Assembly: GCA_902760805.1 (NCBI GenBank)
Contig: CACWHY010000007.1
Location: 9,588-73,587, forward strand
Length of the DNA: 64,000 nucleotides
Reading direction: 5' to 3'
DNA from: Ruminococcus flavefaciens
Lineage (GTDB): Bacteria; Bacillota; Clostridia; Oscillospirales; Ruminococcaceae
The position numbers and the translations under genes were made by a program. Within the stretch, counting starts at the first letter, position 1. Every line of letters begins with the position of its first letter. Positions 11,588-34,342 of this stretch are shown piece after piece. Below the pieces are notes generated by a model. That model made no database searches, was not told where the DNA came from, and was given only the letters and a program-made list of their open reading frames with translations.

Positions 11588-12457
11588 ATGCACGATATCT
11601 GGAATCCCTGGCACGGGTGTATCAAGAAAAGCGAGGGCTGTGACCATTGCTATATGTATTTTCTTGACAAGATGAGAGATCAGGACGGCTCAAATATATA
11701 CCGGACTAAGGCAGGCTTCAACTACCCGATACAGAAAGACCGCAAAGGAAATTACAAGATAAAAAGTGGAGAGCAGATAAGAGTTTGCATGACCTCGGAT
11801 TTCTTTCTTGCCGAGGCAGATGAGTGGCGTGATGAAGCATGGGAGCTTATGAAGATACGCAGCGATGTGATATTCTTTCTGCTGACAAAACGCCCCGAAC
11901 GTGTGGCGGAGCATCTCCCGAAAGACTGGGGCGACGGCTGGGATAACATCTTTTTTAATGTGACAGCCGAAAACCAGCGGCGTGCAGACGAGCGTATCCC
12001 CATACTGTTTGAACTCCCTTTTAAGCACAAGGGCGTGATGTGCGCTCCATTCATCGGTCAGGTCAGTATGAGAAAATATCTTGAGACTGGACAGATCGAG
12101 CAAGTTCTCTGCGACGGCGAGAATTACGACGGCGCAAGACCCTGTCATTACGATTGGGTGAAGCTCCTTCGGCAGGAATGTGTGGATAACAATGTGACAT
12201 TTGTATTCTGCGGAACAGGACGGCGCTTTGTCAAGGATGGAAAACTCTACAAGCTGGAGGGTAATATCCAGTCGCAGCAGGCAAGAAAGTCGGGTATGAG
12301 CTTTCGGGGGAAGCCGATACATTTTGACTTGTATGACAGCCTTGGATACCCTGTCAGAGATGAGGACAGATACAAGCCTGTATTCAGAGAACGCTGTGAG
12401 ACCTGCGGTATGCAGATGTGCTGTAATGGGTGCAGTAACTGCGGAAAGTGTGAATAA
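11588..12457 (+). CDS. DUF5131 (phage Gp37/Gp68) family protein with a Cys-rich C-terminus
   Basis: The N-terminus IWNPWHGCIKKSEGCDHCY is characteristic of the family. The C-terminus is CETCGMQMCCNGCSNCGKCE. The gene starts 1 nt after the previous stop. Confidence 0.75.
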   Translation: MHDIWNPWHGCIKKSEGCDHCYMYFLDKMRDQDGSNIYRTKAGFNYPIQKDRKGNYKIKSGEQIRVCMTSDFFLAEADEWRDEAWELMKIRSDVIFFLLTKRPERVAEHLPKDWGDGWDNIFFNVTAENQRRADERIPILFELPFKHKGVMCAPFIGQVSMRKYLETGQIEQVLCDGENYDGARPCHYDWVKLLRQECVDNNVTFVFCGTGRRFVKDGKLYKLEGNIQSQQARKSGMSFRGKPIHFDLYDSLGYPVRDEDRYKPVFRERCETCGMQMCCNGCSNCGKCE

Positions 12458-12539: not shown

Positions 12540-13979
12540 TTACTGAACAGGATCATTTACGATACCCACAAACAGCGGCAGTCCTGTCTCGCTCATGATC
12601 TCAAAGATAAACGGTCTGTCCAGCTTGAAGTCCACATGATCTTCAGGAACGCCTGCACCTTCATAAGCCATGATCGTTAGAGAAGCCGCTTTGCAGCCCT
12701 CCTCGTCAATGGTAACTCTTGTATCTTGCTCTGCTTGACTCAGAAAAACACGCTCTGTATCGGTCAAAGGCGTAAAATTGGATCTTCCTGCATCAAAAAT
12801 ATCGGTAATGCCAAGCGCATTCAGTCCGGCACGCAGGTCTATTTTGGAAGAAACGTCAAATTTCGGAACAGACATATCAACGATCACATACTTGTTGTTC
12901 GGATAGTCCCAATTACTGAGCATAAGCTCTTTGACCTGTTCATCATTCAATAGATCGTCAGGTGAATGACCCTCGTCAGGAAGTATCAGCTTCATGTGAC
13001 CGTTATTTTCGAGCTGTAAGCTGACCGATGAGAAATGCTCTCCCCAACAATATCCCATATCTCTCTCTGAGTTCATGAAGTCACATTCGACATCACCGCC
13101 GACCGCATGAAATACGCCCTTTTCAGTATTTTCTGGCAAGAACTTGTTATTCCATTTTCCACTATAATTAACAGTAGAAGCAAGTGTCAGCAGCATTTCT
13201 GGATCCATTTTTATATCCGATACATAGTTTTCAAGAAGTCCGTCTGTCTGCTCATTCATCCAATCTTGCAACATCTTATTGTAATCATCAGATACAGGAT
13301 TACCAGTATACACAGATGAATAGTAAGTGTCGGCAAGTGTATCCACCGTATCCTGCTTATAATCGGCGTTACTGTTCGTCCAAAGAGAATTGGCGAGGAT
13401 ACATTTGGCCATACCATCATCCATATAATTCGCCAGCCAGATAGATCTCGAATGTGACCGCAGAGTATCAATATCTCCCTGACCAAGCACATCGAGTATC
13501 TGCTGTCTGCTGCTTCCGTCAGTTATCTCAGCCGACATACCAAGTGCCATATACAGGCTTAACGGAGAATATACAATGTTTTCACTCTCGGCTCCTGTTA
13601 GAAATGTGTTCGCTGTATCAGAAAAAAACGTGTCAAAGCCGTCTTTGTATCCTGCCGGTTGATCTCTTAACGCTTGTTTTGCATCGTTCCATTGTGTTAA
13701 AGCATCTTGATCCATTTCATCAGGATACATAGGCATTTCGGGATATGCTGCCGCTGCAAGTAACATCGCATTGCTGCCGACCTTGTCAGAAGGAGAGATC
13801 ACAGTATCATCACCTGTTTTCGGGAGAATAGCAATACAGGCAATGACCGCCGCAGCACATACTCCGCCCAGAGCAGTCCACTTGATAATGCTGCTCTTTT
13901 TCTTTTTGGCAGTCAGTTCAGGAACGAGTTTTTCATCTGTATCACCGATCACATCAAGAAGAATATCCTTGTTTTTCAT
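12540..13979 (-). CDS. membrane-anchored serpin with an anti-sigma-like N-terminus
   Basis: Short cytoplasmic N-terminus, then Lys-rich stretch, then TM (IIKWTALGGVCAAAVIACIAILP). The rest is serpin-like, ending in hinge/RCL DEEGCKAASLTIMAYEGAGVPEDHVDFKLDRPFIFEI. Its ATG overlaps the sigma gene stop (ATGA). Confidence 0.85.
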   Translation of the reverse strand: MKNKDILLDVIGDTDEKLVPELTAKKKKSSIIKWTALGGVCAAAVIACIAILPKTGDDTVISPSDKVGSNAMLLAAAAYPEMPMYPDEMDQDALTQWNDAKQALRDQPAGYKDGFDTFFSDTANTFLTGAESENIVYSPLSLYMALGMSAEITDGSSRQQILDVLGQGDIDTLRSHSRSIWLANYMDDGMAKCILANSLWTNSNADYKQDTVDTLADTYYSSVYTGNPVSDDYNKMLQDWMNEQTDGLLENYVSDIKMDPEMLLTLASTVNYSGKWNNKFLPENTEKGVFHAVGGDVECDFMNSERDMGYCWGEHFSSVSLQLENNGHMKLILPDEGHSPDDLLNDEQVKELMLSNWDYPNNKYVIVDMSVPKFDVSSKIDLRAGLNALGITDIFDAGRSNFTPLTDTERVFLSQAEQDTRVTIDEEGCKAASLTIMAYEGAGVPEDHVDFKLDRPFIFEIMSETGLPLFVGIVNDPVQ

Positions 13980-14527
13980 ACGCCTACACCTTCCTTTTCT
14001 AAGTAAACTCTGAGTTTATCCCGAATACGCTGTAATATCATTTTGACAGCGCCCTCAGAAATGCCATTCCGTTTTGCTATCTCAGCTACAGGCATCATGT
14101 ACCAGTAACGCAGGAGAAATATCTTTCTGTTTTTGTCGGGGAGACTGCGAAGAAAGCTGTCCATAAGCTCCTTTAGTGCGAGCCTGTCCTCAATGGGAGT
14201 ATCTTCACCGATACATTCTCCCAGTTCGTCAAGACATAATGCAACTTGTCCGCCGCCATATTTTTTTGATCTATCCTTGCGGTACTTGTCGATCGCAAGA
14301 TTACGGGTGATCTTACCAAAGAATACCGTTAATCGGCTCGGCTTTTCAGGGGGCATAGTATTCCAAGCACGAAGCCAGGTATCATTAACGCATTCCTCTG
14401 TATCCTCTGCTGAGTGCAGAATGTTGTTCGCAATGGTACTGCAATAACCGCCGTATTTCGTCTTGCTTTCTTTTATTGCAGATCCTTTTCTTTGCCAGTA
14501 AAGCTCTATGATATGAAGATCTTCCAT
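13976..14527 (-). CDS. RNA polymerase sigma-70 family (ECF-like) sigma factor
   Basis: Region-2-like ECVNDTWLRAW and region-4 HTH PVAEIAKRNGISEGAVKMILQRIRDKL. The start MEDLHII is preceded by GAGGAGG. Confidence 0.85.
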   Translation of the reverse strand: MEDLHIIELYWQRKGSAIKESKTKYGGYCSTIANNILHSAEDTEECVNDTWLRAWNTMPPEKPSRLTVFFGKITRNLAIDKYRKDRSKKYGGGQVALCLDELGECIGEDTPIEDRLALKELMDSFLRSLPDKNRKIFLLRYWYMMPVAEIAKRNGISEGAVKMILQRIRDKLRVYLEKEGVGV

Positions 14528-14612
14528 AGCGCACCTCCTCGATGCCCCTTCACCCATATAGACGAGATCCATATTGCTCAGGTAACGGTAATTTTGAAAA
14601 AAATCTATGATC

Positions 14613-14641
14613 ATTATATCACAGATAACACGAATACGCAA
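14613..14641 (-). promoter_or_regulatory. candidate sigma-70-type promoter of the sigma-serpin operon
   Basis: The minus strand reads TTGCGT-17 nt-TATAAT. Confidence 0.45.
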
Positions 14642-17546: not shown

Positions 17547-18830
17547 TTATTTGGAGCTGGCGAGGTATCTCTCACGCATGAGGATCAGGTCAAAGACCTC
17601 GATCCGGCGGTTTTGGCAGAGATCTCCTGCCTGCCAGTTTTTCAGCTGTCCGTTACCAAGGAGGAAGCTCTGCATGGCCACCAGGTCGGCGATAGTGAAC
17701 TCGCCGTCGGAATTCACGTCGCATTGGGTCTCCTGAGACTGGCCCTTCACCAAAATATCCACGCTGGTGACGGTCATCTCCTGAGAGGACGAGGCAGTGA
17801 CGGTCAGCCGGTCAAGGTCGGTGTAGCCGATGTCCAGGCTGTCCAGAGCGGCCTGAAGATCGCTTGCCAGGAAGCAGGCTGTGTCGCCGTTGGAGTAGAA
17901 GGGCTGCACCTGCTGCCAAACGGCGGTGCCTGACCACTTCTGCAATGCGATCACCGGCGGGTCTGGGCAGCTGTACTTCACCTCAATGGCGAAGCTGTCT
18001 CCCAGCTTTTCCAGCTCGGCGCCGTCCAGCACAGCGGTGTCGCTCCAGCCTGACCAGCTGCTTGCGCCCGCAGCCTCACCTGTGAAGATGTTCTTGTAGG
18101 GGGAGTAGCCAGAACAGGGGTATTTGGCAACAGTGGTGTAGATCATATTGCCCTTGGGAGTCTCGCCCTGACGCTGAAAAAGCTCGGTGAGCGTGACGAA
18201 CTCATAGCCCTGATCGATGAGCTCCGGCACCACGATCTTCAGAGCGTCAACGGTCTGGCTGTTTCCGGCAGCATCATGGAGGAGCACGATAACGCCGTCC
18301 CTGGCGCCGTTTAGGATAAAGTCGGCACGCTGCTGGGCGGTGACGTTCTCCATATAGTCCTTGCAGTCGATGCCGCAGATGAACGGCAGGTCGATGTTGT
18401 CATACATGGTCTGGCTGACGTCGATGAATGGCGGCCGGAAGAACTTAGTGTGTTCCCCGGTGATCTCCAGCACCTTCTGGTCAACGAACTCCACCTCGGC
18501 CTTGATGTCATCGGGAGCCATGCCGCCCATATTTGAGTGGGTCTTGGAGTGGTTGTCGATCTCGCAGCCCATATCGTAGGCACGCTTAACGGACTTGGCG
18601 CTGTCCTCATTGATGTTGTCGCCGATGAGGAAGAATGAGGCCTTAGCGCCGTATTCCTCCAGAATATCCAGCACATCGTTGGTGGTGGTAGTGTTAGGGC
18701 CGTCGTCAAAGGTCAGAGCGATGAGCTTTGTCTCCTGAGCCTGGGCACGAGCCGGGATCGCCGGCAGAAATGCTGTCATCATTGCAGCCGCCGCAGCTGC
18801 TGCCAGCACTTTGATAAAGGTATTCTTCAT
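17547..18830 (-). CDS. secreted polysaccharide deacetylase (NodB domain) with a C-terminal dockerin
   Basis: Signal peptide MKNTFIKVLAAAAAAAMMTAFLPAIPARAQA and NodB motif LTFDDGPN. The C-terminus CDVNSDGEFTIADLVAMQSFLLG is a dockerin repeat, followed by a degenerate second repeat. Confidence 0.85.
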   Translation of the reverse strand: MKNTFIKVLAAAAAAAMMTAFLPAIPARAQAQETKLIALTFDDGPNTTTTNDVLDILEEYGAKASFFLIGDNINEDSAKSVKRAYDMGCEIDNHSKTHSNMGGMAPDDIKAEVEFVDQKVLEITGEHTKFFRPPFIDVSQTMYDNIDLPFICGIDCKDYMENVTAQQRADFILNGARDGVIVLLHDAAGNSQTVDALKIVVPELIDQGYEFVTLTELFQRQGETPKGNMIYTTVAKYPCSGYSPYKNIFTGEAAGASSWSGWSDTAVLDGAELEKLGDSFAIEVKYSCPDPPVIALQKWSGTAVWQQVQPFYSNGDTACFLASDLQAALDSLDIGYTDLDRLTVTASSSQEMTVTSVDILVKGQSQETQCDVNSDGEFTIADLVAMQSFLLGNGQLKNWQAGDLCQNRRIEVFDLILMRERYLASSK

Positions 18831-28680: not shown

Positions 28681-30303
28681 TCAGAGACCGGCGTCCCACA
28701 TTTGCAGAGCCAGAGCGTCCATTCCGTCAACTCCGTCGCCTGTATCGTGAACGTCAGCGTTTTTCAGTCCCTCCTCAGTAAGGGGATACTTTTCCGGAAG
28801 AGCGATATACTGGAGAACAGCCACAGCATCGCTCAGGTCGGTCCTGCCGTCGCAGTTAGCGTCGCCGCTTGCCGGAGCAGCAGCCATGTCCGGAGCTACC
28901 TCGCCGGAGGAGTACCTTTCCCTGAGGTCTACAAGGTGCTGGCCTTGCTCAGCAGAAGAGGGGATATGGCCATTGTCACGCTTGAAATACCTGAGAAGGA
29001 TATTTGCGTCGTAGATGTCTACACAGCCGCTTTCGTTGAAGTCGGCGATTTCCTTGATGTGGTCGGTGATATCCGTTGGCACGAAGGGAACGATGTGATT
29101 CTGCTCATAAATTGGAGCGTACAGGGTCTGGATAATGTCGATGTAGTCGAAATAGTCGAAAACTCCGTCGCCGTTCAGATCCTTTTCCAGCTCGCCGCTG
29201 TCCAGCTTTGCAAAGATCGGCACCTCTTCCTCGGTGGGGATGATCTCCTCCCTCAGATAAGTGGCACGAGCCTCCTCCATGTATTCGCAAAATCTGCCAA
29301 CAGCCTCTGCTCCGTCTGTTGAGTGGAACTGATAGCCCTCCACAGCCTCCAGGATCTCCTCAGTAGTGGGGAGACTGCCGTTTTTGTAAAGGTAGAAAAT
29401 GGTGTAGCTTATGTTGGCGCTGGATGACGGAACAGCCCAATGCGGATTAGCCGAGTGCTCACGGATCTTGTCCATGTAGGACTGGTCGAACACTGAGAGA
29501 GCCTCAAACATCTCCTCGGGGTGTGTCTCGCCGCCAAAATAGCCGTATTTTTCCCTGACCTGTGCCAGTGAAGCGTCATAGATCTCGTTGTAATGGAAGA
29601 TCTCGCAAAGGTCGCATATATCCAGCTCACCGTTGTCATTTGCATCGACTAAAATGTCGTTTTCCTGGATATATTCTATGAAACTCAGCTCATCTCCTGT
29701 GAAGTCACGCCACTCCTCCGCATAAGCCTTAGCAGGTAAGATCGCAGCGAAGGTCAGGACCGCTGAAAAGAATGCAGCATACTTTTTCATATATTCTTCA
29801 TCTCCTTCATTCAACTCTTGGCTGGGAGCAGTGGTCACCTCAGGCAGCTCCGGGAGAAAGCTCTCCGTGGGGAAGATCTCCTCCGGCGGCTCTGTATCAG
29901 GGCTATCCGGAAGGAGCTCCTGCTGCGGCGGCACAACTGGCAGCTCAGCCTTGTCGTTTTCCTTATTCTCGTGGAAGGCAGGCTCTGTTTTGTCTGGAGC
30001 AGTCACGTTTTGCTCAGGGCTTGCCGCCGTGGTCACTGCCGGAGCCGAAGATCCCGGCTCCCTCTCATCTGTCCCCACGGAAGGCTCCTCAGTGGCTAAA
30101 GCAGCAGTAGGCTCAGGCATTCTCCGCTCAGGCGGCCTGAGAGCGGGATCTTTCCCTGCGAAAACCGCCAGCAGGAAAGCTCCGCACACCGCAGCCGCAG
30201 CCCCGGATACTCTCCGGAACAACACACGCCTCCGGCGCTTTTCGGCCTCCGCCCGATCACGGCGCTCAAGAACGGCCGCTGCCATTTCCCTATAGTCCCG
30301 CAT
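28681..30303 (-). CDS. anti-sigma-like membrane protein fused to dockerin/EF-hand-repeat modules
   Basis: N-terminal Arg-rich segment plus TM (GAAAAVCGAFLLAVFAG), then a Pro/Glu-rich linker and an internal signal-peptide-like segment at res 172-195. Ca-binding repeats follow (DANDNGELDICD, DLNGDGVFDYFD, DFNESGCVDIYD). The C-terminus carries a canonical dockerin (DANCDGRTDLSDAVAVLQYI ... DTGDGVDGMDALALQMW). The start overlaps the sigma gene by 14 nt. Confidence 0.7.
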   Translation of the reverse strand: MRDYREMAAAVLERRDRAEAEKRRRRVLFRRVSGAAAAVCGAFLLAVFAGKDPALRPPERRMPEPTAALATEEPSVGTDEREPGSSAPAVTTAASPEQNVTAPDKTEPAFHENKENDKAELPVVPPQQELLPDSPDTEPPEEIFPTESFLPELPEVTTAPSQELNEGDEEYMKKYAAFFSAVLTFAAILPAKAYAEEWRDFTGDELSFIEYIQENDILVDANDNGELDICDLCEIFHYNEIYDASLAQVREKYGYFGGETHPEEMFEALSVFDQSYMDKIREHSANPHWAVPSSSANISYTIFYLYKNGSLPTTEEILEAVEGYQFHSTDGAEAVGRFCEYMEEARATYLREEIIPTEEEVPIFAKLDSGELEKDLNGDGVFDYFDYIDIIQTLYAPIYEQNHIVPFVPTDITDHIKEIADFNESGCVDIYDANILLRYFKRDNGHIPSSAEQGQHLVDLRERYSSGEVAPDMAAAPASGDANCDGRTDLSDAVAVLQYIALPEKYPLTEEGLKNADVHDTGDGVDGMDALALQMWDAGL

Positions 30304-30844
30304 GGAAGATCCCCTCCTTCTCCAGCTCTGTTTTCAGAGCCTTTTTCGCCTGATACAGCAGATTTGTCATCTGCCGGCTGCTTTTTCCCATGACAGCTGC
30401 CGCGTCTGAGACCTTGAATCCCTCAAGATACACCAGACAAACAGCCTGCCTGTACTCCGGCCGGAGCTTCCGCAGCGCCCTATGGACAGCGATACGCTGC
30501 TCCTCACGAAGATAATTTGCCTCGATGTCCTCGTCGCCAGCAATGTCGAGGATCTCGGCAGCTCCTGCACGAAGAGCCTTAGGCTTCCTGCGCAGTGAGT
30601 CAAGAGCTAAGTTCCGCCCTATGGAATAAAGCCATGTTTTGAAAGTGCTCTGCCCGGAAAACCGGGGCTTTTTGTAGGCCAGCCGGAAGAAGGTCTCCTC
30701 GGTCAGATCCTCGGCCTCGCCAAGGTCGCCTACTATCGAGCACAAGTACATAGTGAGCCCGTCCTTATAGCTGCAAACCAGCTCAGTCATGGCAAGATCG
30801 TCGCCGCTCAGATAGCGGCTGTAGCAGCTCTGGCCATTATCCAT
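30290..30844 (-). CDS. ECF-type RNA polymerase sigma factor
   Basis: Region 2 (EDLTEETFFRLAY, TWLYSIGRNLALD) and region 4 (YRQAVCLVYLEGFKVSDAAAVMGKSSRQMTNLLYQAKKAL). Confidence 0.85.
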   Translation of the reverse strand: MDNGQSCYSRYLSGDDLAMTELVCSYKDGLTMYLCSIVGDLGEAEDLTEETFFRLAYKKPRFSGQSTFKTWLYSIGRNLALDSLRRKPKALRAGAAEILDIAGDEDIEANYLREEQRIAVHRALRKLRPEYRQAVCLVYLEGFKVSDAAAVMGKSSRQMTNLLYQAKKALKTELEKEGIFHAGL

Positions 30845-32662: not shown

Positions 32663-33844
32663 ATGAAGAGTTTCGTCAAAAGAGCAGCTGCTACAGCCGT
32701 GGGCTGTACAATGCTCGTGTCGTCTACAGGAATGACCGCTTCGGCGGTGGGAATGACCTATCCTGCTAGCGATTCCTATAAGAGCGGCGTTTACTTTAAG
32801 AATATTTCCGCAGTTCAGCTTACAGGAGATCAGCGTGTTGACATCGTGGCAGTTGCGCAGTCTCAGCTGGGCTATCATGAGGGCAGCAACGCCAATGACC
32901 TTTCCGGAAATTCCAACGGCTCCGGAAACTTCACAGAGTATGGCAAGAGAGCCGGAAACGTGAGCATGGGCTGGTGTGCCGCATTTGTCTCTTGGTGCGC
33001 AGACCAGGCCAGAGTCCCGTCAAGCATCATCAAGCGCCAATATACGGCCGATAACATCACCAAGCAGTCCAAGACCGGACTCTTCGGCGGCACATTCAAG
33101 GCCTACGGTACATATATCCCAAAGCCCGGCGATATCGTATACTGGGATACCAATGAGCCTCTGAACAACAATTCCGACCACGTTGAGATAGTCGTTGCGG
33201 TCAGCGGCTCGACTATCACCTCAATCGGCGGAAATTCCTCAGATAAGGTCAAGACCCACACTGTGGATCTTTCTTCCAGCGACGGCTTCTCGTATTTCCA
33301 CATTTTAGGCTTTGAGGTGCCGAATTATACAAGTTCTGCGGCTGCGACTACAACGACTACGACAGTCACAACGACAGTCACAACGACTACGGAAACGACA
33401 ACTACTGTTCCCGTGACGACAGAGCCGCCTTTTGAGCCTGAATACTCCTACGGAGATGTGGACGGCGACGGAACTGTAGACGCATCAGACGCTTCACTGC
33501 TCCTAGCCGAGTACGCTGCACGTCAGACAAATACCGCTAACGAGATTGCTGAAGAGGCCTCTCAGTATGCCGATATCGACGGCGACGGCTTCGTAGATGC
33601 AACTGACGCATCTATCGTTCTGCAATACTACTCTTATGTGCAGACCGGCGGCGATTCGGCTCTGGCCGATTACATGGAGAACATTTACTCCGCAGAGCCT
33701 GAGACAGAGGACCCGACTGAGGAGGAGCCTCCTGCCCAGCCTTCTGAGGAAGAACTTGCAGACCGACCCTCCGACCAGGACAGCGAAACTGAGCTGATTG
33801 AGGACAAGCCTGAGTTGAACACTGAGGAACAGCTCCAGGAATGA
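32663..33844 (+). CDS. secreted CHAP-domain (peptidoglycan amidase/peptidase) protein with a Thr-rich linker and a dockerin
   Basis: Signal peptide, CHAP catalytic Cys context GWCAAFVSWC and His context SDHVEIVVAV. Linker TTTTTTVTTTVTTTTETTTTVPVTTE. Dockerin repeats DVDGDGTVDASDASLLLAEYA and DIDGDGFVDATDASIVLQYYS. Acidic tail. Confidence 0.85.
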   Translation: MKSFVKRAAATAVGCTMLVSSTGMTASAVGMTYPASDSYKSGVYFKNISAVQLTGDQRVDIVAVAQSQLGYHEGSNANDLSGNSNGSGNFTEYGKRAGNVSMGWCAAFVSWCADQARVPSSIIKRQYTADNITKQSKTGLFGGTFKAYGTYIPKPGDIVYWDTNEPLNNNSDHVEIVVAVSGSTITSIGGNSSDKVKTHTVDLSSSDGFSYFHILGFEVPNYTSSAAATTTTTTVTTTVTTTTETTTTVPVTTEPPFEPEYSYGDVDGDGTVDASDASLLLAEYAARQTNTANEIAEEASQYADIDGDGFVDATDASIVLQYYSYVQTGGDSALADYMENIYSAEPETEDPTEEEPPAQPSEEELADRPSDQDSETELIEDKPELNTEEQLQE

Positions 33845-34048: not shown

Positions 34049-34342
34049 ATGGCAAAGGTATCCGCTAAGTATGAAGTAATGGTCGTTTTCAGCATGAAGA
34101 ACGGTGAGGAGGCTATGAAGGCTCTCGTTGAGAAGTTCAAGGAGAGGATCGAGCGTCACGCCGAGGCTGTTGAAGTCAACGAGGATTGGGGCAAGCGCAA
34201 GCTCGCTTATCCTATCGAGGACGAGACAGAGGGCTACTATGTTATCTACACATTTGAGTCTAAGCCCGATTACCCTGCTGAGCTGACAAGACGTCTGAAC
34301 ATCACAGACGGTATTCTTCGTTCACTCGTAACTGTTCTCTAA
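34049..34342 (+). CDS. rpsF: 30S ribosomal protein S6
   Basis: MAKVSAKYEVMVVF...WGKRKLAYPI. RBS GGAGGTG. The ORF-track N-terminal extension is rejected. Confidence 0.9.
   Translation: MAKVSAKYEVMVVFSMKNGEEAMKALVEKFKERIERHAEAVEVNEDWGKRKLAYPIEDETEGYYVIYTFESKPDYPAELTRRLNITDGILRSLVTVL

Follow-up and report, generated by a model that had tools for sequence, protein, structure and literature searches.

Two overlapping minus-strand genes within a 64,000-nucleotide (nt) stretch of Ruminococcus flavefaciens contig CACWHY010000007.1 (the window; positions are those of the window unless another locus is named) encode an extracytoplasmic function (ECF) sigma factor and a serpin that is predicted to be anchored in the membrane by its N-terminal segment and that is evaluated here as a candidate anti-sigma factor (Table 1). 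A previous sequence-only reading of this DNA had described the ATGA at which the stop codon of the sigma gene overlaps the start codon of the serpin gene, and this overlap was confirmed in the sequence. The sigma frame is open from 13976 to 14641, and from the conserved start codon, the ATG at 14527, it encodes a protein that begins MEDLHIIELYW.

Table 1. Features of the sigma-serpin locus and ECF-type promoter motifs before lipoprotein relatives of the serpin (aa, amino acids)
Feature	Position	Strand	Description
ECF (group 4) sigma gene	13976-14527	-	183 aa; Pfam and NCBIfam matches; homologues at sister loci
Serpin gene, membrane-anchored, candidate anti-sigma factor	12540-13979	-	479 aa; predicted N-in, serpin outside
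ATGA overlap (translational coupling)	13976-13979	-	Sigma TGA at 13978-13976; serpin ATG at 13979-13977
Ribosome-binding site GGAGG	14534-14538	-	6 nt before sigma ATG; GGAGG kept across loci
Housekeeping-type promoter candidate	14613-14641	-	TTGCGT (14641-14636)-N17-TGATATAAT; TG-extended TATAAT
ECF-type promoter candidate	14558-14588	-	CCGTTACC (14588-14581), CGTCTAT (14564-14558); CGTTAC-N17-CGTCTAT
Cytoplasmic tail, proposed sigma-binding module	13893-13979	-	aa 1-29, MKNKDILLDVIGDTDEKLVPELTAKKKKS; conserved motif
Transmembrane helix, single	13824-13889	-	aa 31-52 (IIKWTALGGVCAAAVIACIAIL-P), Ala/Gly-rich
Extracytoplasmic linker, candidate site-1 region	13770-13823	-	aa 53-70; variable
Conserved N-terminal extension of serpin domain	13650-13769	-	aa 71-110; LLAAAxYPEMPxYP plus extra helix at aa 91-105
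Serpin core	12549-13607	-	aa 125-477; Pfam PF00079, PDB matches, AlphaFold2 and Foldseek
Hinge and reactive-centre loop	12645-12704	-	P17 (E426) to P3' (P445): EEGCKAASLTIMAYEGAGVP; predicted P1 Ala442 (12654-12656)
GGAAC-N16/17-CGTCT(A/T)A before lipoprotein serpins	L046 5946-5970; L048 5956-5980; L052 142-166; L064 5911-5935; L071 334-359; L072 5853-5877		≤60 nt from start

Conservation of the gene pair

Relatives of the serpin protein were detected in the genomes of 409 species (one genome per species), all of them Clostridia and assigned to Ruminococcus, Oscillospiraceae, Lachnospiraceae, Acetatifactor, and Mageeibacillus. The carriers come mostly from the rumen and gut and include a Ruminococcus metagenome-assembled genome (MAG) from the human gut (L003). 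The closest serpin, with 86% identity, is that of Ruminococcus sp. YRD2003, and the homologues are named only as hypothetical proteins. The locus counts given below were obtained from the best 80 loci of the 409 matching species genomes.

A homologous sigma gene (33 to 94% identity) adjoins the serpin gene in 67 of the 80 loci, and the 4-nt overlap is present in 54 of the 59 sigma-serpin pairs in which both genes were readable. Two loci have the swapped order serpin-sigma, with the genes still adjacent. The sequence-only reading had suggested a survey of related genomes for sigma-adjacent serpins; both the pairing and the coupling are kept down to 33% sigma identity, and because the pairing recurs in dozens of diverged genomes it is not due to chance. 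No third conserved gene (a protease, a site-2 protease, or another anti-sigma factor) was found around the pair in these loci, the most frequent neighbor being a generic ATP-binding cassette-type ATPase in 11 of the 80.

At 11 loci without a sigma gene, a lipobox signal peptide replaces the cytoplasmic tail and transmembrane helix of the serpin protein, in front of the same ectodomain, including the YPEMPxYP extension. These lipoprotein forms occur in at least two places of a neighbor-joining tree of the serpin domain, which carries no support values. Two further loci have the gene order serpinA-sigma-serpinB (L055, 5571-9585, and L063, 974-4688); serpinA is signal-anchored and lacks the tail motif, and serpinB carries it. 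These three-gene operons may reflect a division of labor in which one serpin is the effector and the other the sensor.

The sigma factor and its promoters

The sigma protein matched Sigma70_r2 (8.9e-9), Sigma70_r4_2 (1.3e-12), and Sigma70_ECF (6e-11) in Pfam, in agreement with the previous description of this frame as sigma-70/ECF-like with 183 aa, for which a profile search of regions 2 and 4 had been proposed. In NCBIfam it matched TIGR02937 (sigma70-ECF; 8e-22, 77.6 bits versus a cut-off of 42.9), and no more specific NCBIfam subfamily reached its cut-off. Region 2 lies at about aa 31-86 and region 4 at about aa 121-173, with neither region 3 nor a C-terminal extension. At this size, and with regions 2 and 4 as the sole sigma regions matched, the protein falls within the ECF (group 4) sigma factors.

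Two promoter candidates precede the sigma gene. The more distant one is of the housekeeping type (TG at 14621-14620, TATAAT at 14618-14613) and is kept in the closest relatives (L002 to L004); its -35 hexamer matches the consensus at 3 of 6 positions and was hence unlisted by a simple promoter scan. This promoter probably supplies basal amounts of the sigma factor and of its candidate anti-sigma factor. The nearer one combines the AAC-like -35 and CGT-like -10 elements of an ECF-type promoter, with 17 nt between GTTAC and CGTC, and in related loci a motif occupies the same place ahead of the sigma gene. The sequence-only reading had named a promoter at 14613-14641; the elements are present there, but they are of the housekeeping type, and the ECF-type and probably autoregulated promoter is the nearer one.

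The -35 and -10 elements vary with the sigma subgroup (CGTTAC/CGTCTAT, TGTAAGA/TGTGTAT, CAATATT/TGTCTTAT, and TGTAAC/TTGATAT), as expected if each sigma factor reads its own promoter. In 29 loci the pattern GTTACN{16,18}CGTCT lies directly upstream of the first gene of the operon; in L055 this gene is the leading serpin paralogue, and in the other 28 it is the sigma gene. The pattern occurs twice in the window, with 0.15 matches expected. The second match (34306-34332) is antisense within rpsF, the gene for ribosomal protein S6, and was rejected as chance; no further regulon members were found with this pattern within the window. The conserved ECF-type promoter before the pair suggests that the unit is probably self-inducing, the promoter probably being read by the sigma factor encoded downstream of it. 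The known output of the sigma factor, as judged from these motifs, is its own operon, that is, more serpin.

Lipoprotein-type relatives are also preceded by an ECF-type motif, GGAAC-N16/17-CGTCTAAT; of its 24 matches in all loci, 6 are no more than 60 nt from the start codon of such a gene (Table 1), and no sigma gene was found near these six serpins within flanks of 1.6 to 7 kb. The serpin family is thus an output of ECF sigma factors even where no sigma gene is adjacent, which suggests that capture of an anti-sigma tail by an ECF-regulated serpin gave rise to the fused form.

These promoters also bear on the possibility that the serpin is output only, a sigma-controlled shield tethered to the cell surface, with the sigma factor itself regulated otherwise, either at the level of transcription or by an anti-sigma factor encoded elsewhere, and with the tail serving as a targeting or topology signal. 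The operon has an ECF-type promoter of its own, lipoprotein relatives have such promoters with no sigma gene nearby, and, among known gut serpins, that of Bifidobacterium longum is merely anchored by its N terminus and that of Bifidobacterium breve is induced by protease through a separate two-component system (PMC8012564). The sequence-only reading had offered a sigma-controlled protease shield as its alternative, and the ECF-type promoters, together with a second serpin in some operons, support such a role without making it exclusive. The evidence that bears on the tail makes an output-only serpin considerably less probable, as described below.

The serpin domain and its reactive-centre loop

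The sequence-only reading had described about 420 residues as a complete serpin. The Pfam Serpin profile matched aa 125-477 at 1.4e-60, covering profile positions 13 to 370 of 370. The best sequence match in the PDB was tengpin (7e-35, about 25% identity), with the reactive loop aligned without gaps from the hinge to the RPF motif. The structure prediction that the earlier reading had called for gave the same answer: an AlphaFold2 model of aa 71-479, built with 117 sequences, has a predicted local distance difference test score (pLDDT) of 90 and a predicted template modelling score (pTM) of 0.87. A full-length model built with 18 sequences had a pLDDT of 44.5 and was set aside. Foldseek found 415 PDB matches to the model at E ≤ 0.001, and the top 50 listed were all serpins, with template modelling scores of up to 0.91; tengpin (6.6e-31) and cleaved miropin (root mean square deviation, 2.1 Å) headed the list. 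The ectodomain therefore has the serpin fold, which is defined by three sheets and 8 to 9 helices, and matches the profile at full length.

The register of the reactive loop was set by the canonical P17 Glu and by the gap-free alignment to tengpin, which gives E426 as P17, G428 as P15, C429 as P14, A431-A432-S433-L434 as P12 to P9, T435 as P8, A442 as P1, and P445 as P3'. The P1 Ala, the small P12-P9 residues (AASL), and the inhibitory-type hinge of the sequence-only reading are thus in the same register as in tengpin. That reading had used the alpha-1-antitrypsin register; its P1 Ala stands, but the F-x-x-x-RPF motif has its Phe at P9', which is one residue beyond the position in alpha-1-antitrypsin.

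The hinge has the features expected of inhibitory serpins, with Glu at P17, Gly at P15, an uncharged P14, small residues at P12-P9, and Thr at P8. Cys at P14 and Leu at P9 are atypical yet uncharged, and tengpin has Val at P9. The hinge sequence IDEEGC[KT]A[AS]xxT is kept across about 80 relatives, in sigma-coupled and lipoprotein forms alike. The rest of the loop retains Gly at P2 and Pro at P3', with free variation at P7-P3 and P1-P2'. A hypervariable P7-P2' amid a kept hinge is what adaptation of inhibitors to differing targets would be expected to produce. The loop has the same length as that of tengpin and a similar P-site stretch (EGAG-VP, versus TAAG-IP in tengpin), and by both the tengpin alignment and the AlphaFold2 model its length is compatible with full translocation of a protease. 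In the model, G428-G441 (P15-P2) is inserted as strand 4A of sheet A, which is the relaxed form; the model thus indicates that the loop is capable of insertion and is silent on the native state.

The atypical residues and the inserted loop of the model would also fit a sensor ectodomain that is not an inhibitor, one that binds a ligand or acts as bait, in the manner of ovalbumin or the hormone-binding serpins, and that responds to a signal other than a protease or is cleaved without trapping. A few subgroups have deviant hinges (VDQYGIKAVAAT in serpinB of L055 and EEGVKGAAIT in L059 to L069). However, Glu at P17, Gly at P15, an uncharged residue at P14, small residues at P12-P10, and Thr at P8 are retained, in the lipoprotein relatives as well, the loop aligns without gaps to that of an elastase inhibitor, and the hypervariable P7-P2' looks like the target-driven diversification of an inhibitor. 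A noninhibitory sensor therefore seems highly improbable, and the serpin is likely to be inhibitory.

The Cys at P14 (C429, 12693-12695) is nearly invariant in the family, whereas most serpins have Thr, Ser, or Val at this position. Strand 2A opens with another Cys (C193, 13401-13403), which is kept in more than 90% of close relatives and is lost in some, such as L063. A disulfide between C193 and C429 was considered and dropped because C193 is not kept in all relatives. The two residues may confer redox sensitivity on loop insertion, or they may mean nothing.

The cytoplasmic tail, membrane span, linker, and N-terminal extension

The N-terminal segment, lysine patch, and single transmembrane helix are exactly as quoted in the sequence-only reading. 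The tail consists of an acidic motif, h-x-x-h-h-G-x-h-D-E-x-h-h, followed by the lysine patch. All serpins encoded after an adjacent sigma gene, and those encoded before it at the loci with swapped order, start with this motif, for which the consensus is approximately M-K-x-x-E-x-L-x-D-x-I-G-x-I-D-E-x-L-I, followed by a Lys/Arg patch and by the transmembrane helix at about aa 35. In every sigma-coupled relative the hydropathy of this helix peaks near aa 31-45, with a maximum of 2.0 to 3.0. The acidic tail, the patch of 4 to 5 Lys or Arg residues, and the one hydrophobic helix predict a single-pass protein with its N terminus inside and its C terminus outside, and the serpin domain can be placed outside the cell because the same domain also occurs as a lipoprotein. 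It is strongly supported by comparison of the loci that the sigma factor and the serpin protein are made together through the overlapping stop and start codons and that the latter spans the membrane once, with the tail inside and the serpin outside.

Classical class I anti-sigma domains are about 80 to 90 aa long, form a four-helix bundle, and often carry an HxxxCxxC zinc motif. A class I domain of the zf-HC2/RskA type was not found in the serpin protein, which has about 29 cytoplasmic residues, no Cys/His motif, and no Pfam match to such a domain at E ≤ 10. Searches of Pfam at the same threshold with the N-terminal segments of six subgroups returned only noise and sub-threshold DUF4179 matches, the latter on the basic patch and transmembrane helix of two relatives (E of 0.067 and 0.42; 11 to 14 bits versus a cut-off of 30). 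The DUF4179 plus DUF3298 architecture of RsiV was likewise not found, DUF4179 having no Pfam match in the window protein, and no NCBIfam model matched the serpin protein.

Over 97 relatives the transmembrane helix is 32% Ala and 14% Gly. This composition resembles that of site-2 protease substrates and is the sole hint of sequential cleavage at site 1 and site 2. The linker that follows is hypervariable in sequence and in length (15 to 66 aa from the end of the helix to the YP motif, sometimes more than 100 aa). The N-terminal extension that comes after it is in turn highly conserved, with Y79, P80, Y85, P86, W97, and L104 invariant or nearly so among relatives, and it is common to sigma-coupled and lipoprotein forms. 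Confidence in the AlphaFold2 model starts at aa 71, and the extension is predicted with a pLDDT of 86 to 93 as a strand (aa 72-75) and a helix (aa 91-105). It occupies the position of the N-terminal latch of tengpin, with no sequence similarity between the two.

The tail as the probable partner module of the sigma factor

Correlation of pairwise distances separated the two proteins into two blocks whose border lies at the membrane. The tail correlates with the sigma factor at r = 0.89 (0.82 with region 2 and 0.87 with region 4), compared to only 0.47 to 0.49 with the extension and the serpin halves of its own protein. The first block, consisting of the tail and sigma regions 2 and 4, has internal correlations of 0.82 to 0.89, and the second, consisting of the extension and the two serpin halves, has internal correlations of 0.73 to 0.78; correlations between the blocks are about 0.5, and the transmembrane helix is intermediate. 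The partial correlation of tail and sigma factor given the serpin is 0.85 (p ≤ 0.0005), and that of tail and serpin given the sigma factor is 0.00. Physical linkage is insufficient to account for this pattern because the tail tracks sigma region 2, about 300 to 550 nt away, better than it tracks the extension, about 150 to 300 nt away.

The tail is also found on proteins without a serpin. A profile of the tail and transmembrane helix retrieved only short proteins (30 to 104 aa), many of which were serpin fragments at contig ends; the usable serpin-less carriers were P0150 and the relatives of P0162, and a follow-up search with P0162 returned only five short proteins. P0150 (65 aa, on seven contigs) is encoded 24 nt after an ECF sigma gene whose product is 39% identical to the window sigma factor (E of 2e-44). 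P0167 (114 aa) has another small ectodomain and an ATGA overlap with its sigma gene, the product of which is 38% identical to the window sigma factor and 46 to 48% identical to serpin-coupled sigma factors. Overall, the sigma factors next to P0150 and P0167 share 38 to 48% identity with serpin-coupled sigma factors (E of about 1e-45 to 1e-60). Two other candidates were discarded, P0169 because its gene context is uninformative and P0149 because an insertion sequence (IS) element cuts the gene and the original ectodomain is unreadable. A regular-expression search for the tail motif in all open reading frames (ORFs) of the 80 loci and the window found no carrier other than serpins; the three other matches were alternative starts of one permease ORF. 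Since the tail and transmembrane helix also occur on serpin-less partners, they are the common denominator of the partners of this sigma clade, and the serpin is one exchangeable ectodomain.

Homologous ECF sigma factors with such minimal partners are encoded at L081 (3417-4198; also L082 and L083) and at L086 (957-1867), the partners being a 65-aa protein with the tail, the transmembrane helix, and about 20 further residues and a 114-aa protein with the tail, the helix, and a 60-aa Cys-containing domain. Several small ORFs and a gene for a resolvase come after the L081 pair, which may belong to a mobile element. At L084/L085 (601-2546), the sigma gene is followed by a tail-bearing gene that is cut after 67 aa by an IS element (HTH_Tnp_1 plus rve transposase). 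This would be a natural regulatory mutant if the remaining tail and helix bind the sigma factor without sensing or if the remnant is unstable.

These findings are difficult to reconcile with a serpin that is output only. Membrane topology requires a basic patch and a transmembrane helix, not a conserved acidic motif of 20 residues. In its variation the motif tracks sigma regions 2 and 4 and not its own ectodomain, it recurs on the 65-aa and 114-aa proteins beside homologous sigma factors, where tail and helix are the only conserved features, and a lipobox replaces it exactly where the sigma gene is absent. Furthermore, no other conserved neighbor in the 80 loci is fit to be the anti-sigma factor. 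An output-only role with the tail as a targeting signal thus seems quite unlikely.

The tail with its transmembrane helix is strongly supported as the conserved partner module of the sigma factor. It lies outside the known families of anti-sigma domains, though it probably works like one. The pairing of the genes, the lipobox swap, the co-variation of tail and sigma factor, and the serpin-less tail carriers all support the anti-sigma reading proposed earlier from the sequence, and it is very likely that the serpin protein is an anti-sigma factor.

Proposed mechanism

The analysis favors a two-gene, self-inducing ECF sigma/anti-sigma unit in which a working serpin of the inhibitory type forms the outside domain of the anti-sigma factor, a reading to which we assign a probability of roughly 0.6. 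At rest, the tail would hold the sigma factor at the membrane, with basal amounts of the two proteins supplied from the housekeeping-type promoter. An attack on the reactive loop by a serine protease, which from the small P1 residue is probably of the elastase or subtilisin type, would end with the protease trapped covalently and the serpin shifted from the stressed to the relaxed form. The odds that protease attack is the trigger appear to be about even.

Relaxation would move strands s1A to s3A together with helices E and F. In tengpin, it is to this surface that the N-terminal extension is bound, and there the extension is coupled thermodynamically to the native state. In the present protein the extension would then undock and expose the juxtamembrane segment to a first cut, after which a site-2 protease would cut the Ala/Gly-rich transmembrane helix, the tail would be degraded, and the sigma factor would be freed. 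The freed sigma factor would transcribe its own operon from CGTTAC-N17-CGTCTAT, replacing the consumed inhibitor, restocking the sensor, and, in some genomes, co-inducing an additional serpin gene. That the stressed-to-relaxed change of fold upon protease capture is itself the transmembrane signal, licensing regulated intramembrane proteolysis (RIP) through the undocked extension, is put forward tentatively, as a possibility rather than a probability. If true, a suicide inhibitor doubles as a single-use receptor, the consumption of which is reported to the transcription machinery, with a response that resynthesizes the inhibitor, and the serpin mechanism would have a sensory use that has not been described before.

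The first cut might instead be made by excess protease, beyond the capacity of the serpin, directly in the flexible linker. The protein would still be an anti-sigma factor, with a serpin that guards its own tether until it is saturated, whereupon protease clips the linker and RIP follows. The linker is disordered and hypervariable, ranging from 15 to 66 aa and sometimes exceeding 100 aa, the transmembrane helix is Ala/Gly-rich, and all of the evidence for an anti-sigma role applies equally. Moreover, the one-for-one consumption of a serpin makes an overflow detector a logical design. The strong conservation of the LLAAAxYPEMPxYP extension after the linker is left unexplained by such a design, although the extension is also present in the lipoprotein forms and so may only stabilize the fold. 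Overflow sensing by linker cleavage is regarded as somewhat unlikely; it and the conformational switch are inseparable computationally. In both variants the unit is a homeostat for a suicide inhibitor.

Several observations weigh against an anti-sigma factor with a serpin as its protease-responsive outside domain. The tail has only about 29 residues and no match in Pfam to a known family of anti-sigma domains, and the correlations of distances can be inflated by shared history. The loop is already inserted in the AlphaFold2 model, which lends no support to a metastable form. Lipoprotein serpins behind ECF-type promoters show that a sensor role is not needed for a link between sigma factors and serpins, and RIP could be a response to envelope damage of any kind, in which case the serpin would be no more than cargo. 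In addition, most relatives are from rumen MAGs.

Other genes in the window

The immediate neighbors of the pair encode an AraC/GyrI regulator, a MutS-like ATPase, a DUF5131 protein, and a YjbR protein, none of which belongs to the conserved unit. A DUF5131 protein (N terminus MxxIWNPWHGC...) is encoded near the serpin locus both in the window (11588-12457) and in the distant locus L063 (6131-7213), probably by coincidence. The window also encodes a polysaccharide deacetylase with CBM65 and a dockerin (17547-18830) and a CHAP peptidoglycan hydrolase with a dockerin (32663-33844), and these two dockerin-bearing enzymes indicate that the host is a cellulosome-producing Ruminococcus.

A second ECF sigma gene on the minus strand (30290-30844; 184 aa, 28% identical to the serpin-coupled sigma factor) overlaps the gene for a 540-aa protein (28681-30303, minus strand). 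This protein has a short Arg-rich N terminus and one transmembrane helix, after which a long linker rich in Pro, Glu, and Thr leads to a type I dockerin at the C terminus (Pfam, 7.9e-10). Its N terminus does not carry the tail motif of the serpin family. The protein would be a candidate for an anti-sigma factor that docks to the cellulosome.

Relation to characterized systems

Tengpin of Thermoanaerobacter tengcongensis (PDB 2pee, 2pef, and 2vh4) inhibits leukocyte elastase with a stoichiometry of inhibition of 2.1, and its N-terminal extension packs onto the serpin core, locks the native state, and controls the equilibrium between native and relaxed forms (PMC1905895). The serpin described here has a loop of the same length, a similar P2-P3' stretch (GAG-VP, compared to AAG-IP in tengpin), and an extension that precedes the core. 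It differs in that identity is about 25%, the extensions are not alignable, and no link to a sigma factor is described for tengpin.

The nearest characterized logic, by analogy, is that of SigmaV/RsiV (Bacillus subtilis, Enterococcus, and Clostridioides difficile), in which an ECF sigma factor is cotranscribed with a single-pass, N-in partner in an autoregulated operon. The RsiV ectodomain binds lysozyme and site-1 cleavage follows (PMC4183432, PMC5014341, PMC6066255); binding of a hostile host enzyme thus licenses the site-1 and then the site-2 cut, and the output defends against the same enzyme. RsiV differs in its DUF4179/DUF3298 architecture and in its noncovalent, reversible binding, whereas a serpin would trap its target covalently and change fold irreversibly. 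The cytoplasmic part of the serpin protein, of about 29 aa, belongs to no anti-sigma family in Pfam, and the likeness to RsiV cleavage is one of analogy.

Bifidobacterial serpins (B. longum and B. breve) likewise belong to gut bacteria and have an N-terminal membrane anchor, and that of B. breve is protease-induced and autoregulated through a two-component system (PMC8012564). In that arrangement the sensor and the effector are separate proteins, and there is no sigma or anti-sigma factor. Siropins of Eubacterium siraeum (44 and 48 kDa) were considered as possible members of the family; no sigma context is given for them.

The ectodomains of RsgI proteins are swappable modules that otherwise occur free-standing, such as carbohydrate-binding modules and glycoside hydrolases. 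SigI/RsgI systems, as generally known and as mentioned in PMC7826278, resemble the present unit in their occurrence in cellulosome-producing Clostridia, their single-pass anti-sigma factors, and their autoregulation. They differ in that SigI has a SigI-C domain and is not a canonical ECF sigma factor, and in that the signal is polysaccharide binding; Pfam gave no match to the RsgI_N domain in the serpin protein. In BlaR1/MecR1 and SigmaP-RsiP-PbpP, an extracytoplasmic domain taken over from a target or defense protein is covalently acylated by the beta-lactam threat, and this suicide event is relayed through the membrane and induces the resistance gene. These systems have other folds and another output logic, with a repressor-cleaving metalloprotease or a separate penicillin-binding protein as sensor, and there is no homology.

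Implications

The sequence-only reading had known of no characterized serpin-type anti-sigma factor, and a search of the literature likewise found no paper in which serpins are connected with an anti-sigma factor or with an ECF group. Anchored bacterial serpins, protease-induced serpin expression, modular anti-sigma ectodomains (RsgI), and enzyme-binding anti-sigma factors (RsiV) are already known. What is new is the combination of a serpin ectodomain with an undescribed short module, probably anti-sigma in function, within ECF/anti-sigma signaling, and not a new category of signaling.

ECF sigma/anti-sigma pairs are a major class of bacterial signaling systems for which the sensed signal is mostly unidentified. 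Because the mechanism of a serpin ectodomain is fully understood, irreversible, and protease-triggered, the input signal can in this case be guessed and directly tested. The short module, of about 29 aa, is missed by current domain libraries and, if the reading is correct, would be a new anti-sigma module widespread in gut and rumen Clostridia. For engineering, the reactive loop, tail, sigma factor, and promoter would together amount to a compact protease biosensor.

If the proposed reading is confirmed, the sensor is the defense molecule itself, in a loop that keeps a stoichiometrically consumed inhibitor topped up. Hundreds of species in Oscillospiraceae, Ruminococcus, and Lachnospiraceae carry the unit, and they come from the rumen and gut, habitats in which host, microbial, and dietary proteases matter, both for cell-surface machinery such as cellulosomes and in inflammatory disease.

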